A DNA stretch of 64,000 nt, taken from positions 128,001-192,000 of the IMG/VR virus record IMGVR_UViG_3300021514_000002, one strand, 5' to 3'. The notes under the pieces were generated by a model, which did not search any database, had not been told where the DNA came from, and saw nothing but the letters and a program-made list of their open reading frames with translations. This DNA is from a virus (Duplodnaviria; Caudoviricetes). A program made the position numbers and the translations under genes. Positions 11,513 through 34,199 of the stretch are shown here, piece after piece (position 1 is the stretch's first letter; every line of letters begins with the position of its first letter).

Positions 11513-12022
11513 TTTGCCTTCTGCCTATACGGCAGTGAACAACTTTGAAGCTATCAAGCTTTTAAGTATTAACTTCTAAGCTGCCTATACGGCAGTGAAC
11601 CTAATAATGTAGCAGTAATTGTTTTGTCGTTCCTTCTAAGCTGCCTATACGGCAGTGAACATGACACAACAGCGAATACACTCGTCTATGTTTCTTCTAA
11701 GCTGCCTATACGGCAGTGAACTGATAGCCGCATACCTAGTGGGTTTTTTGAAAGCTTCTAAGCTGCCTATACGGCAGTGAACATACCATTGGATAGTGGA
11801 ACGGAAAGAGGCACCTTCTAAGCTGCCTATACGGCAGTGAACCTTCCCATACTTCCAACACTTTTAGTTTCGCACTTCTAAGCTGCCTATACGGCAGTGA
11901 ACGATAGAACCTATTCCAGTTATTCCAGTTAATCCTTCTAAGCTGCCTATACGGCAGTGAACATTAGTTACCCATAGGTCTTCTGCACTTGACGCTTCTA
12001 AGCTGCCTATACGGCAGTGAAC
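11513..12022 (-). CRISPR. Type I-F CRISPR array: 9 repeats (last degenerate), 8 spacers of 32-33 nt
   Basis: 28-nt repeat GTTCACTGCCGTATAGGCAGCTTAGAAG at 11995, 11935, 11875, 11815, 11755, 11694, 11633, 11573 (left coordinates); degenerate trailer repeat 11513-11540. Confidence 0.99.
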
Positions 12023-14681: not shown

Positions 14682-17267
14682 TCACCCTATTAATATATTT
14701 GAAATTGAACCAATCGGCTGCTTGTCACAAATTGCATAATAAATAGCTGATTGATGTGCTTTTTGTTCGCCACCAATGGCGTTCAAATCTTCTTTTGTGT
14801 AACTTAGATAAATTGGTGTATCTGGATTTCGTGCAGCATTTAATAATATATCTTCATTATACGTTTTTTTCGTTTTTTTGATATTATGATGTTTAGTTAA
14901 CATATATGATAACAGATTATTCTCAGCATTACCATACCCTTTTATTAACCCAACACTTGCTGTTAATCCTATTGTAGTTTGGGTATGATCAGTGTCTTCT
15001 GTATAAGCATACTCATTTGGAAATTCATATTTTTTCGAATTTACTACGCGGCAAATTGCCATTTGTACAAATCTGTTATCACCACGTAAAGAATTATTTT
15101 TAATTTTACTCGTCTGCTTGTTTAATGAAACTTTTTTATGAGGGTAAAATAATGGATCTATTATATTTTGGTTTATAAGTGTTGCACTGTCTTTTAACAT
15201 TAATAATAATTCTTCTTTAATTTCGTTTAAAGATATTTCGTCCTTATAGAATTTTTTATATAACGCATAAAGATAATTAATATCAACAACATTACTGTTA
15301 ACATTGGAACATAAAAAATTATACCATGCTTTAGTGCTTTTTAATAAATTCTGCGTTCTTAAAAACCAACCGGTTTGTCCATTATCTATATTTTCAGGTA
15401 CTACCGTAAGGTATTCATTGATTGTGTTATTTTTACCAAAACGATCTAAACGACCTAACCGCTGTAACCAATTCTCTGCGGTTGTTAATTCTGTTATCAT
15501 GTTATCGCAGCTAATGTTTAATGAGGATTGAATGATAGGTCCACTACGCATTATATCGAATTCACTATTACCACCTTCCTTGAAATTATCCATAATCGTA
15601 TTAAATAATGAAAGTTTATCAGCTTTTTTGAATTTAGAATGAAACAATATACCATTTTCTTGATGCATATTTTTAATAAAACCGAGTTGTGCAGTAATTG
15701 CGGTATTACTAATCACAAACGTATTCTTTTTGAATATTTTTTGTGTTAATAATGAATTATTCACATCATCAATTTTAAAATTTACACGATATTTAGATTT
15801 GTTAAAGCTTTTAATATCAAATATATCACTTGAATCAATTTTTAAGACTTTATTCACAAAATAGTAATTGGGTGTAGCAGATACCAATAATGTATTTGCC
15901 TTATCTCCTTGTAACTTTTTGTTTTCAATTAGTTCTGCAAACAACAAATTAAAGGCTGGCATTGTAATTAATTCATGATATTCATCGAAAATGACATGTG
16001 AATTCATTAAAGTTATTAATGCAGTTATATCAGAATGTGTGGTAATTGTGTTTATCGCGTGATCTATCGTAGTAATAACAATATCCCCTGTGAACATATT
16101 ATGTTCTGCGGTTTCCTGCTCAATGCCATTAGTTTTTGTATTTTTGTACTCACCTGTATAAATTTCTATTCGACTGTTTTTTAAATAATCCAATTGTGAC
16201 AGATCGTGATATAGTCCAAGACACACGTTTACCCGAGGAGCTATCCATATAATTTTCTTAACATTACTGTTGAATGCCCATTCTAGGGCAATTTTAGTTT
16301 TACCACAACCCGCTGGCCCTTCAAGAACTGCAATATCGTTAACATCTTGACATTGTTTTGCCACTACCGCTTGTGCTTTGTTTTGTTGACTATCTGGGTA
16401 TAATATAGTAAAGCCTTCAAGACATTGCGCTATTTCAGTTTGAAGCGTACTATTATTATCCAAATGTTTATTGGTTAAAAAGTTTAAACTTTTATCGTTT
16501 ATACGTGTTGTCAATTCACAAGCTGAAAGTGTTGACACAATTCTATCAGCAGTTATAATAGCAGCCCTGATGATATTTTTATCAGCGTTTTCTTTAATTT
16601 CCCTAGTATAATCATCAATAATATCATTGTTTTCCGAATATTCTTTATAAAGGAGATTTTGTTTTTTTAAAGCGTATACAGCATCCTCAGTTATATCCGT
16701 TACTCGTTTCGGTAATTTGATAACATTATTAGAATAAGTTAAGAGTGAAGAATTTACACTTTCCAATATTTGACTGGCTTCTTTTAGAAATAATTCCATA
16801 TTCATATCAGCATTAAAAGAATTATTGACTTTATTGTAAATTTCAGCTTGATTTTTGTAATTATTCTTTCTTATAGGTTTACTGTGATGCCAGTAAATAC
16901 CATGTGTCGCATAATCAAATTGTTTTGGATTTAATCTTTTATCATTTCGATCATTTAGTAAATTAAATAGAAATAGTGAAATTTCGTTGTGTCTTGGATG
17001 CTTTTCAAAAGAAAATTTGCCCCTGTTGATATGTACCCCATCATTAACATCCACTGCTTTTGAACGAGAGTTTAACCAGTTTTGAAATGCAGGATCTAAT
17101 TTACCGATGTCGTGGAAGCAACCCGCCACCAATGTAGCATATGCTAATTTACTATTATTAGTAAGTTTATTAACAATATCATATCCAATCCACCCAACAG
17201 CAAATAAATGATCGGCAAGTAAATGTTGTTTATCATTAGCATAATATGATATTAAATTATTGGTCAC
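14682..17267 (-). CDS. cas3: Cas3 HD nuclease-helicase, apparently without an N-terminal Cas2 domain
   Basis: HD motifs HLLADH, FHDIGK, WHH, TAD; SF2 motifs [23 protein letters not shown]; GTG start with the first HD-domain His about 15 aa in. Confidence 0.95.
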
Positions 17268-20437: not shown

Positions 20438-21140
20438 TATCAGGATTCCATGTATTACCTTTTTGAAGGTTTTCAGAAGCGGTTATAATTTGTAGGTTAT
20501 ATTCAACATGAAGTCCACAGACATTCACACCTTGTAATGGAACAATATGGTCAACGTGAAATATTTCATTACCACCAGCGATTCTGGTACAAATATTTAA
20601 ATCTTGACAATCTTCATAAATGTCATGGATTATTTTTATATTTGACCATATTGGTCTGGCTTGTATTCTCCATGCTCTACGAGAAGCACAGTATGCATTA
20701 TTTTGTGCTTTATTATTTTGTCTATATAATCGTTGTTGTTTATTAAGATGGTTTTTGTTGTGTTTTTTGTATTTTCCACTACACAATTTTATCTTATCAC
20801 GATTACATATATTATATTCTTTATTGTATTCGGATATTTTTTCGTAATTCTGTTCAACATATTTTTTATGTTGTTTGTTCACTTCCTTCTTGTTATTCTG
20901 ATACCATTCTTTTTGTTGCATCATTAAATATTCTTTATTCTTATTTCTATATCCTTTATTGTATTGTGCTATTTTTTTCTTATTATTTGCCTTATATTGT
21001 TTATCATATGTTTTACTACATCCCGCACAACAACCATTAATCACTCTTCTTTCAGTAATATGTCCTTGGGGACATTCTTTTCCTGTAAAGTACCAAATTA
21101 AACCTGTTTCTTTTGCTTCTTTTCTTGTTATCACTTTCAT
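20430..21140 (-). CDS. HNH homing endonuclease
   Basis: N-terminal ITRKEA..GL..YFTGKEC; C-terminal HVDHIVPLQGVNVCGLHVEYNLQII..SEN. Confidence 0.85.
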   Translation of the reverse strand: MKVITRKEAKETGLIWYFTGKECPQGHITERRVINGCCAGCSKTYDKQYKANNKKKIAQYNKGYRNKNKEYLMMQQKEWYQNNKKEVNKQHKKYVEQNYEKISEYNKEYNICNRDKIKLCSGKYKKHNKNHLNKQQRLYRQNNKAQNNAYCASRRAWRIQARPIWSNIKIIHDIYEDCQDLNICTRIAGGNEIFHVDHIVPLQGVNVCGLHVEYNLQIITASENLQKGNTWNPDNG

Positions 21141-32160: not shown

Positions 32161-33634
32161 TTATCCCCAAAAACCGTCTTCCATTGGTTCCATGTTTTCA
32201 AAGCAACCATCCTGTGCGAAGTCCATTAACTCTTGCTGTTCTAGCAAGTGGTTATTATCTTCGTCAAAATCGTACTGTAAATCAAAATCTTCTGCGTAGT
32301 CGTCTTCCATTGTATTGTGCCTTTTAAGTCCGTTGACAGTGGAATAATTATACATGTTATTTAGGTTATGTCAAGAATTATTTTTAATAAACCTTAGTTG
32401 CAATTACCTTATCTGTGCCAGTATTAACAACAGACACAACTTTTTTAATCATGTCCTTGACATTATCAAAATCCAACATTAACTCAGGTAATGGTTCACG
32501 AACCTGCATATTTGTTAAACAATGTGCAATGCGCGTTATAGCTCCAGTCAATGAATAACTAATCATTTGATCATCGTTCGCTTTAACCATTAATGTAAAC
32601 AAGTTACCAAACGGATCTTTTAATGAAAGTTTTGCAAGTACAGTTGCCATAATGTGTTACCTTGTTTGTTGACGTTAGAGCTATTATTACATAACCCTAT
32701 ATCTTTGTCAATAACTATTTCAGGATTCTTTTCAGCCCTTCAACCACCAGCTGATATTGTTTAGCTAATGTCATGTCAAACAGTCGATCAACTGTTATAA
32801 AATAATCCGCATAATATCCAACTTCTGTTACGCCTAATGGTGCTAGTTCTTTTAAGATACATTCAATATCTTCATCGTTTTGCTCGCTTGTGCGATTTAT
32901 CACACAACCATCAGGCGTAGATATTACGAAACTTCTTATTTCATAACCATCGACTTCGTTCATAACTTTGTTACTGCTACAATTTTAGCATTCTGCGCGC
33001 GTAAATATTTCGCCTTTGCAAGTGCTGGGGTTTTACTTGCTCCATCTGGTATGGTGAAAGTATTTTCAACTTTTAAATATGGCGCGGTTGGTTTACCATC
33101 ACGAATGTCTCGCACAGTATACGCTTTTACCATTACACCATTTTCTTTATTGATTGTTCGATGAGCGGCATACAATGTAGCGGCATATGAATCACCAATA
33201 TTAAAAGTATCTTTTAAAATACTAATTGCATTCTCACGCTTGGTTGCTGTTTGACTATCAAGCACAGTGAATGCGCGTTGCCGTACCGAATTTGGATCTT
33301 TTTTACGTGCCATTTAAATTTCCTCTTGTTCGTCGTCTGCTTTACCATTGATAGTACAAGGACGAAACTTATACAATGGACAATTCTTTGAAGTACAATC
33401 TTCAACTTGTTTACGCCAACTACCACACCCCAATGCTTCGGGGTCATAGATACATTCACAACACATCGCATTGATGGCTGCAGCGCGCCCCTTTTTACTA
33501 CGGAGTTTATTCATTACTTTTTCTTTCTGATCTGTTTTCATATTTGTTACCTGATCTGTTTTAAGAAACTTATGTAAGACCAGTGACACGACATGAATAC
33601 CTAGTCGACTCCAGCTATGCTGGCTTGGTTTCAT
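32161..33634 (-). other. Small early hypothetical CDS (32161-32355 very acidic, 32384-32650, 32715-32963, 32960-33313, 33314-33634)
   Basis: Co-directional ORFs with promoters and RBS. Confidence 0.7.
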
Positions 33635-33720
33635 CCCGTAGCAAGGGCATTCCTAGTTACACTTGCCGCCTGTTTCCAGACTGTTGTTTTTCAACAACTA
33701 CCACTTAATCTTACATAAGC
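33568..33720 (-). ncRNA. Candidate structured RNA (multibranch, about 150 nt)
   Basis: ~18-bp closing stem (33568-33585/33702-33720), two GAAA-capped hairpins, promoter at 33737-33765. Confidence 0.5.
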
Positions 33721-33895
33721 TCCCTACGTTGAGAACATTATTACACAACCGTAGTTCTTTGTCAATAACTTTAAGCCCTTATAAGTGCTCTTATAGTTTA
33801 TTACCCTGCGCGTCAGGTCGCGTCTATAAGATCGGCGTGGCAATTTGACGCCGATGTTTTACTTTTAACATACATTGTATGTTCTTCTTATAAGC

Positions 33896-34069
33896 AGCCC
33901 CTAACAGGATTCGAACCTGTGAGAAGATAATACAATAACGATGTTTTGGGGACATCAAGACAATTACCCAAAATCCTTGTCTACACACTACACTTAGCGC
34001 AATTGTATGCAATGTATTATCTAAGTCGCTTCTTCAAGTGACTCCCTAAGCCGACAGGGGGCTAGGGGC
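33896..34069 (-). ncRNA. tRNA-like RNA with ~98-nt insertion at the variable arm
   Basis: Acceptor GCCCCTA/TAGGGGC, T-arm ACAGG-TTCGAAT-CCTGT, D-loop with GG, imperfect anticodon arm; no encoded CCA. Confidence 0.55.
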
Positions 34070-34199
34070 ATAGATTTATTCTGCCCACCTCACGACACTG
34101 GGTGGCGATGCCGTAACATTCCTACATGATTGCGTTCCTCTTTGTTTGTTGACAGTGGGGATATTATTACATACCCCTAGTTATTTGTCAATAACTATT

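Follow-up and report, generated by a model that had tools for sequence, protein, structure and literature searches.

Bacteriophages have been known since the 1970s to encode tRNA-like stable RNAs, among them species 1 of T4 and RNA1 and RNA2 of T5. The T4 record gives rnaC as species 1 RNA (139 nt), and the T5 record gives RNA1 (144 nt) and RNA2 (125 nt), both annotated as 'tRNA-like stable RNA with unknown functions'. Here we describe a tRNA-like RNA encoded at 33896-34069 (-) of a 64,000-nt window, the whole stretch of DNA analysed, which spans bases 128001-192000 of the 363,531-bp IMG/VR virus record IMGVR_UViG_3300021514_000002 (G+C 36%). The RNA, at 161896-162069 in genome numbering, combines a cloverleaf with a 98-nt extra domain (33925-34022) at the variable-arm position, and two hairpin loops of that domain are predicted to pair with each other. 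We are highly confident that this is a real, conserved structured RNA. On its role we are more cautious, and tentatively favour a non-decoding, tRNA-derived stable RNA that would act by mimicry, with the knotted arm as its specific module, an assignment made by analogy.

Coordinates refer to the window unless they are marked as genome or carry the prefix G000:C1, which denotes whole-record (genome) numbering. L-numbers are public metagenome or IMG/VR loci, G-numbers are phage records, and X-numbers are sequencing runs whose contigs align to the window.

Architecture and expression signals

The unconstrained minimum-free-energy (MFE) fold of 33890-34075 yields a cloverleaf plus a 10-bp stem that closes three hairpins. 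Its energy of -57.6 kcal/mol (z = -3.1) was equalled by 2 of 200 shuffles. The parts of the RNA, 5′ to 3′, are the following.

34063-34069 (-): acceptor stem, 5′ strand GCCCCTA, 7 bp (sequence and MFE fold)
34044-34060 (-): D arm CCC / CTGTCGGCTTA / GGG, a 3-bp stem with an 11-nt loop containing GG (fold)
34025-34042 (-): anticodon-like arm GTCAC-TTGAAGAA-GCGAC, with one A·C mismatch and an 8-nt loop (sequence and fold)
34013-34022 (-): closing stem of the extra domain, perfect 10 bp, 5′ strand AGATAATACA (fold and homologues)
33982-34011 (-): hairpin H1 of the extra domain, variable, missing in the homologue L110
33959-33981 (-): hairpin H2, loop GGATTTTGGGTAA carrying TTTTGGG at 33967-33973 (fold and homologues)
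33940-33956 (-): hairpin H3, GATGT-CCCCAAA-ACATC, in which CCCAAAA (33944-33950) complements the H2 loop (kissing loops, pseudoknot)
33925-33934 (-): closing stem of the extra domain, 3′ strand TGTATTATCT, unsubstituted in the copies from runs X3, X4 and X6
33904-33920 (-): T arm ACAGG-TTCGAAT-CCTGT (sequence and fold)
33896-33903 (-): acceptor 3′ strand TAGGGGC and discriminator T, followed by GCT, with no CCA encoded

A sequence-only reading of the locus had described the acceptor stem, the T arm, the D-loop GG, the imperfect anticodon arm with its 8-nt loop and the insertion between AGATAATACA and TGTATTATCT, and all of these were recovered position for position. Likewise, the acceptor stem runs directly into TGCT, in agreement with its statement that no CCA is encoded. 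The D-region geometry (3-bp stem, 11-nt loop) is best read as the class II tRNA type, and the variable arm begins 1-3 nt after the anticodon stem. The anticodon-like arm has an alternative fold, in which a GAAG tetraloop caps a longer stem. The window's copy has G in place of U8, and the insert occurs only once in the genome.

Standard tools pass over the gene. ARAGORN and Rfam bear out the sequence-only reading's placement of the RNA outside normal tRNAs and transfer-messenger RNA (tmRNA). ARAGORN reports no tRNA or tmRNA in the window, and it also missed the tRNA-like RNA when the whole genome was scanned with introns allowed. No Rfam family matches the RNA at its gathering score; the tRNA family (RF00005) gives a partial match over the T arm at 15.3 bits against a gathering score of 29 (E up to 10). 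The acceptor pair at position 3-70 is C3-G70, with no G3·U70.

The RNA lies in a transcription unit bounded by two promoters.

34163-34191 (-): promoter P1, TTGACA-17-AATAAT with an upstream TG (TG-n-AATAAT), an extended -10 type (11/12 in a sigma-70-type consensus scan)
34070-34156 (-): leader of ~87 nt with the generic cassette leader GTCAACAAACAAAGAGGAA and a Shine-Dalgarno site (sequence)
33780-33895 (-): trailer with four hairpins, including ATCGGCGT...ACGCCGAT at 33855-33831 (sequence, promoter/terminator scan)
33737-33765 (-): promoter P2 of the next unit, a structured leader plus a Cys-rich gene; downstream limit of the RNA unit (scan)

The promoter of its own and the hairpin-rich trailer claimed for the RNA are therefore both present, the former at 34191-34163. 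Transcription from P1 is predicted to start near 34156, and the same promoter type precedes the homologues L107 and L110. The leader contains a start-stop mini open reading frame (ORF) with a strong Shine-Dalgarno site, ATG-TAG at 34127-34122 (-), for which L107 has the equivalent ATG-AAG-TAA; an amber-read-through ORF from this ATG was dropped on the strength of that L107 reading. A leader hairpin, CCACC/GGTGG (34105-34101/34089-34085) with loop CAGTGTCGTGA, shows a compensatory change to CCGTC/GGCGG in L107, where the loop is unchanged.

At the 5′ end of the RNA, each of the three members with a known 5′ flank has CTAT directly before G+1, which places T at -1. At the 3′ end, the discriminator is U73 in the window's copy, L107 and the further homologue L143, and A73 in L110; the next letters are GCT in the window's copy and L107 and G-CCA in L143 and L110. 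CCA is encoded by 42 of the 45 phage tRNAs, but not by the tRNA-like RNA, and the phage has a CCA-adding-type nucleotidyltransferase of its own (PF01743, 73.9 bits, genome 78389-78775). The scan found no T-run terminator between the RNA and the next promoter. Palindromes or near-copies of the CTTATAAG type recur in the trailer at 33894-33887, 33830-33824, 33796-33790 and 33785-33778, and may serve a dimeric regulator of P2 as operators. The trailer is 97.4% identical to that of L107, which exceeds the conservation of the RNA body.

Homologues, covariation and mosaic evolution

Three homologues were recovered. Following the Cys-rich protein encoded downstream led to L107:1759-1936 (99.8 bits) and to L110:545-698 (22.9 bits, 154 nt), and a degenerate T-arm/acceptor pattern led to L143:1-157 (93.9 bits, 5′-truncated). 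In addition, runs X3 (marine, 33561-34076) and X4 (sediment, 33530-33986) contain copies ~90% identical to the window, and the cold-seep run X6 matches 33500-33929, after which 160 unalignable letters replace 33930-34084, a stretch that takes in the 5′ two-thirds of the RNA. The public-contig alignments of these runs on the stretch all stop at the promoter.

A segment-by-segment check showed pairing in all helices of all members, including helices whose sequence is wholly different.

Acceptor pairs: kept in L107 with GCCCCTG (G·U) and in L110 with GTCTCTG/CAGGGGC
D stem: window CCC/GGG; L107 GTCAC/GTGGC, with GG in the loop; L143 truncated; L110 TCC/AAGCGATCAAC/GGG
Anticodon-like stem: window GTCAC/GCGAC; L107 GTCAT/ATGAT; L143 GCCGC/GCGGT; L110 GTCGG/CCGAC
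Anticodon-like loop: window TTGAAGAA (8 nt); L107 TTGACG (6 nt); L143 CTAATAA (7 nt); L110 CGGTAAA (7 nt, G33)
Kissing loops, window's copy and L143: TTTTGGG/CCCAAAA, 7 contiguous Watson-Crick pairs
Kissing loops, L107: TATAGGG/CCCTAAA, the central A-T changed to T-A, with one mismatch
Kissing loops, L110: TTAGGG/CCCTAA, 6 of 6 pairs, on hairpin stems unrelated in sequence

In the three close members, 9-10 pairs of the closing stem persist, with changes from A-U to G·U; in L110 the stem consists of 14 pairs of different sequence flanking an internal loop. The T arm is invariant or changed to G·U, and its loop is TTTGAAT in L110 and L143. In alignment A4, 94.1% of cells are standard pairs, compared with 36-51% when partners are slid by 1-3 columns, and 18 pairs are changed on both sides, compared with 2-5 in the slid controls; not one of 500 shuffles equals the real alignment on any of the five measures. 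Eight of the 18 doubly changed pairs sit in H1 (helices 5 and 6). The X3 allele, only partly rebuilt from a difference table, was left out of the pair counts. The homologue comparison suggested by the sequence-only reading thus shows covariation in the helices and in the kissing loops, and relatives show no random decay.

The same comparison bears on the proposed contact between the loops of H2 and H3. A 7-pair match is reached by 80 of 5000 loop shuffles for the window's copy and by 72 of 5000 for L143. Covariation in three versions backs the contact, and the substitutions of L107 recur in X3 and X4. The two loops are accordingly predicted to kiss, pseudoknotting the extra domain as the sequence-only reading had suspected. 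Additionally, in L110 the second G of the D-loop GG is A and C56 of the T loop is U56, the combination that an intact elbow pair would need; as a single case, this is a hint.

BLASTN of the locus against 50,697 phage records left the tRNA-like RNA unmatched; with an 8-kb query, the matches were limited to five stretches of 82-89 nt (76-78% identity) in a flanking gene. Patterns combining T arm and acceptor, acceptor and T arm across a long gap, or the H2-H3 module (exact or gapped) had no matches in IMG/VR. The degenerate T-arm/acceptor pattern returned 20 IMG/VR loci and more than 119 metagenome loci, mostly ordinary tRNAs and about half of them tRNA-Arg; L143, from Joint Genome Institute (JGI) metagenomes, was the sole family member among them. 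Weak long matches to covariance models in G005, G002, G014 and G008 were inspected and are not family members. The loci L101-L105, syntenic via the gene for an upstream 125-aa protein, are without the RNA.

Conservation between the window and L107 changes from segment to segment along the locus.

Promoter, leader, 5′ tRNA half and H1: 51-63% identity to L107
H2-H3: 77%
Closing-stem 3′ strand, T arm and acceptor 3′ strand: 95%
Trailer: 97%; P2: 84%; structured leader of the next gene: 93%; Cys-rich gene: 97%

The X6 breakpoint (33929/33930) coincides with this identity step. L143 joins an H1 of the L107 type to kissing loops of the window's type and has an anticodon-like arm seen in no other member, and X3 has an L107-type extra domain with yet another anticodon-like arm, the X3 data being incomplete. 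Because of these mosaic patterns in L107, X6, L143 and X3, we place recombination junctions inside the RNA gene, with chimeras that keep the long-range helices. The junctions may reflect ordinary early-region exchange or selection for new bodies. Mutagenesis by a diversity-generating retroelement was rejected, as the differences extend beyond A positions.

Proposed roles of the RNA

Because homologues keep the whole architecture with compensatory changes, the likeness to tRNA is more than a chance resemblance, which agrees with the tRNA mimic proposed by the sequence-only reading. Because the anticodon-like loop is unconserved (6, 7 or 8 nt, with G33 once), the RNA does not appear to be a decoder. 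Its ancestry can be approached by deleting the extra domain in silico, which leaves a cloverleaf of 76-79 nt that ARAGORN calls a tRNA in all three full-length members, with a 4-nt 'anticodon' for the window, a 2-nt one for L107 and tRNA-Tyr(GTA) for L110. As the domain-less copies are called tRNAs, L110 as tRNA-Tyr(GTA) with A73, the core is tRNA-derived, probably from a class II Tyr-like gene.

We suggest the following course for a non-decoding mimic. Transcription from P1 would give a precursor in which RNase P would separate T(-1) at 34070 from G(+1) at 34069. The 3′ end would be trimmed, with possible CCA addition by a host enzyme or the phage CCA-adding enzyme, and a mature RNA of ~175 nt would accumulate, with a stable tRNA L-shape and an intact elbow. 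From the variable-arm position would jut a rigid arm, locked by the kissing loops. A tRNA-recognising protein would mistake the acceptor, T arm and elbow for those of a tRNA, the knotted arm would confer specificity or block normal use, and the RNA would work in trans as a sponge, decoy or adaptor.

Several points weigh against this account. Recognition of the RNA by tRNA enzymes is assumed. The covariation set comprises four related sequences, one of them truncated, in an alignment fitted to the model structure, and the D region varies among members, with G8 for U8 in the window's copy. Two covariance models, R1 (single-sequence) and R2 (four-sequence), found no members in 18 related IMG/VR phage records (capsid identity 64-87%, completeness 10 to 100%). 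Given its absence from these records, the tRNA-like RNA is dispensable and narrowly distributed. The stable-RNA analogues of T4 and T5 are themselves without established function (PMC9697503 for T4 RNAC and RNAD; T5 record notes).

A sharper form of the mimicry reading would make the RNA an early-expressed decoy. Its acceptor, T arm and elbow might lure a host effector that targets tRNA (a tRNA nuclease, or a toxin that modifies the acceptor end), the kissing-loop arm might trap or block it, and the body, made up of the D arm, the anticodon-like arm and H1, might be exchanged through recombination between phages that are otherwise 97% identical, as the effectors of their hosts differ. This form we consider speculative and rather unlikely. 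Because homologues share no conserved anticodon loop, the comparison speaks against a decoy for any single anticodon nuclease; it would still fit mimicry directed at factors that recognise the acceptor, T arm and elbow.

The rival that survives best places the function in cis. The tRNA shape would be a site at which RNase P or 3′-end processing trims neighbouring transcripts, as with mascRNA of MALAT1 or tRNA punctuation. Such trimming would set where the upstream leader RNA stops or where the downstream message begins, and would leave the excised RNA with no job. Since no T-run terminator separates P1 from the Cys-rich gene, read-through from P1 is expected, and that gene is the right-hand neighbour of the tRNA-like RNA, downstream of it, at five of the six loci whose downstream region is known. 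However, the Cys-rich gene also occurs at many loci without the RNA, and in the window and L107 it owns a strong P2. The L110 copy, which starts 9 nt after a conserved structured RNA of ~180 nt and has the next promoter immediately downstream, would suit trimming of an upstream leader, but in the window and L107 the upstream leader is short and generic, unlike that structured RNA. A plain tRNA or minihelix would moreover suffice for processing, which leaves the covarying kissing-loop domain unexplained, and on balance we regard a cis-acting element as unlikely.

Somewhat less probable still is a chargeable, special-purpose tRNA, which would be aminoacylated and then serve as a non-ribosomal amino-acid donor or as an odd (four-base) decoder. 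Class II synthetases such as seryl-tRNA synthetase ignore the anticodon and read the long arm, and class II D-arm geometry and a long arm are both present here. The domain-less L110, called tRNA-Tyr(GTA) and carrying A73, has the Tyr features GUA and A73, the 8-nt loop of the window's copy would imply four-base reading, and six other tRNAs of the genome, all of class I identity, bear additional variable-arm hairpins. The members, however, share neither one identity nor one codon, as they have U73 or A73, loops of 6, 7 or 8 nt and, in L110, G33. The phage is also without a tyrosyl-tRNA-synthetase-type or class IIb synthetase, and no tRNA-dependent transferase was seen next to the RNA.

That the extra domain is an intron-like insertion, as the sequence-only reading had allowed, found no support, and we judge it very improbable that this is a tRNA gene interrupted by an intron or small mobile insertion whose removal would yield a normal tRNA. 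Deleting 33925-34022 does leave the ARAGORN-accepted 76-79-nt cloverleaf, and on contig L116 an HNH endonuclease ORF abuts a similar tRNA 3′ half. The remaining anticodon loop, however, would be 6 or 8 nt or have G33 in three of four members. The insert, which occurs once in the genome, lies in the variable region and not in the anticodon loop. Its perfect 10-bp closing helix lacks a bulge-helix-bulge, its 98 nt are too few for a group I intron, and Rfam, searched to E = 10, matches it to neither group I introns nor ribozymes. The insert is also conserved and covaries, including the tertiary kiss, and no insert-free allele was found. A decaying pseudo-tRNA or chance resemblance without function, to which G8 for U8, the anticodon-stem mismatch, the lack of CCA and the absence from most relatives might point, is strongly disfavoured by an architecture kept at only 50-60% identity in the 5′ half, by 18 doubly changed pairs and covarying loops, and by a promoter kept in every member with a known 5′ flank.

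A hammerhead ribozyme was also rejected, since the CUGAUG-like letters near H3 come with no GAAA core and no Rfam match.

Identifying a partner of the proposed mimic could account for an entire class of unannotated phage RNAs and show what a virus gains from tRNA mimicry. The system has useful traits for this purpose: a full cloverleaf with one testable domain locked by kissing loops, natural alleles that keep the fold, and a stand-alone gene with its own promoter, which makes cloning and deletion easy. It also serves as a warning that tRNA finders and Rfam overlook such genes entirely.

Genome setting and relation to described RNAs

The runs containing the window sequence are labelled hydrothermal vent metagenomes, with no RNA run listed among them, and the record encodes a T4-type major capsid protein (Pfam Gp23, 321 bits). 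ARAGORN finds 45 tRNA genes, every one on the minus strand, and one tmRNA (G000:C1 233835-234219, flagged with an asterisk, tag AANDAFFEETRLAA). Around the tRNA-like RNA are small minus-strand ORFs, each with a promoter to itself. The tRNA clusters are elsewhere (genome 2-72 kb and 249-253 kb), the main one ~90 kb away. The tRNA-like RNA occupies a slot of interchangeable early one-gene cassettes, where syntenic relatives hold other cassettes. Five neighbouring proteins compared with Pfam gave one methyltransferase and sub-threshold matches, and no tRNA-handling enzyme.

The Cys-rich protein (75 aa, window 33314-33541 (-)) has the pattern CxxC...C...CPLY.FRP and a weak zf-C4pol match; judging by relatives, its start is probably Met32 of a 106-aa ORF, at 33541. 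Just after P2, between promoter and gene, lies a structured RNA of ~170-190 nt (window 33542-33730 (-)) with no Rfam match. Copies occur at L107:2100-2290 (92.6% identical), L101:5630-5795, L102:5430-5590 and L110:385-535. A long helix closes it, formed by GCTTATGTAAGA...TCTTACATAAG in the window and by GTTTATGGAAAGG...CTTTCCATAAAC in L101, L102 and L110. Downstream of it come the Cys-rich gene in the window, a 67-68-aa gene in L101 and L102, and the tRNA-like RNA in L110. Elsewhere in the window, eight CRISPR repeats lie inside the phage genome at 11573-12022 (-) (Rfam CRISPR-DR4, 45.6 bits each).

Other tRNA genes of this phage and its relatives are also unusual. Two tRNAs have the amber-reading anticodon CTA (G000:C1 252271-252344 and 252952-253023). 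Six normally short-armed tRNAs carry an extra variable-arm hairpin.

G000:C1 2344-2433 (-): tRNA-Met/CAT, 90 nt
G000:C1 5682-5768 (-): tRNA-Trp, 87 nt
G000:C1 22831-22915 (-): tRNA-Glu, 85 nt
G000:C1 69180-69270 (-): tRNA-Asn, 91 nt
G000:C1 69470-69557 (-): tRNA-Thr, 88 nt
G000:C1 71935-72020 (-): tRNA-Lys, 86 nt

The long Asn, Lys, Glu and Met/CAT tRNAs each have a counterpart of normal length with an identical anticodon. Three tRNA-shaped cluster genes were missed by ARAGORN (G000:C1 22997-23109, ~21014-21083 and ~16907-16990 (-)), one of which, 110 nt long, encodes its CCA and has 8 nt in the anticodon loop (TAACGAAT) and 43 nt in the variable region. In a relative, L088:1436-1528 is a 93-nt tRNA-Ile(TAT) with a long arm, which shares the acceptor GCCCCTA and a 23-nt run from T arm to acceptor 3′ strand with the tRNA-like RNA. 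On the reverse strand of L116 (~100-365 of the reverse complement), an HNH-endonuclease-like ORF (...CANCHRVLHYEKH*) runs into a tRNA 3′ half with the same T arm, the acceptor 3′ strand of L110 and L143, and CCA; here a homing endonuclease may have inserted into a tRNA gene and split it. A different tRNA-like RNA of 151 nt, G008:C1:33936-34086 (+), the same locus as L263:101-251, lies just past the tRNA cluster of a related 229-kb phage. It has a 6-bp acceptor, the T arm CGGG-TTCGACT-CCCG and two long hairpins, and is reminiscent of T4 species 1 RNA.

Non-decoding tRNA shapes are known from several sources. MascRNA (the MALAT1 3′ end) and viral tRNA-like structures are recognised by RNase P or CCA-adding enzymes; they are eukaryotic or from plant viruses, without sequence relation to the RNA described here and without a large variable-arm domain. 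In tmRNA, as here, a tRNA-like acceptor/T-arm domain is joined to pseudoknotted RNA. The tRNA-like RNA differs in having a full D arm and no tag reading frame, and a tmRNA identity was rejected on these further grounds: C3-G70, an anticodon-like arm, no tmRNA call by ARAGORN at this locus and a separate tmRNA in the genome.

YrlA is circularly permuted relative to tRNA, its ends forming the Ro-binding stem, and is linked to the rsr gene. The ends of the tRNA-like RNA instead form the acceptor stem. This different topology, the lack of any Y RNA match in Rfam to E 10 and the absence of PF05731 (TROVE/Ro60) from the 363-kb genome, where control genomes score, led us to reject a YrlA or Y RNA identity. 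The two nevertheless share a tRNA-like module (T arm, D arm and acceptor-like stem) joined to a second module with another function. YrlA and bacterial Y RNAs are tRNA-mimicking partners of Ro60 that occur also in phages (PMC4201824).

Like the tRNA-like RNA, bacterial class II tRNAs (Leu, Ser and Tyr) and other tRNAs with a long variable arm show 7/5 acceptor/T geometry, a D stem of 3 bp with a D loop of 11 nt, and a helical arm that separates the anticodon arm from the T arm. Their arm is a single hairpin of 13-23 nt, whereas the arm described here is 98 nt long and branched, 5-7 times longer than the class II arms of this genome. The anticodon loop, moreover, is unconserved and mostly non-canonical, and U8 (window's copy) or U33 (L110) is replaced.

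The closest likeness in plan is to T4 rnaC and T5 RNA1 and RNA2. All are phage RNAs of ~125-175 nt whose ends pair as an acceptor-like stem in folds. The canonical T arms of T4 (CCGGG-UUCGAAU-CCCGG) and T5 RNA2 (GCAGG-UUCGAAU-CCUGU) are matched by that of the tRNA-like RNA. All have oversized extra hairpins for short tRNA arms, no usable anticodon and no place in Rfam. R1 gave no match in the T4 region at E up to 0.01, and R2 gave 15.3 bits for T5 RNA2 and nothing for T4 rnaC at E up to 1, where ordinary tRNAs reach 20 bits. Our literature search met no tRNA-like RNA with a pseudoknotted variable-arm domain, which is no proof that none exists. Because the plan is alike and homology went undetected, we regard the unannotated family as the kind of the T4 and T5 stable RNAs and not as their lineage. 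The T4 and T5 RNAs are encoded within tRNA clusters and processed together with tRNAs, whereas the tRNA-like RNA is solitary, with an early-type promoter of its own. It also keeps the full cloverleaf, its extra mass forming one domain at the variable-arm position with a predicted kissing-loop pseudoknot.

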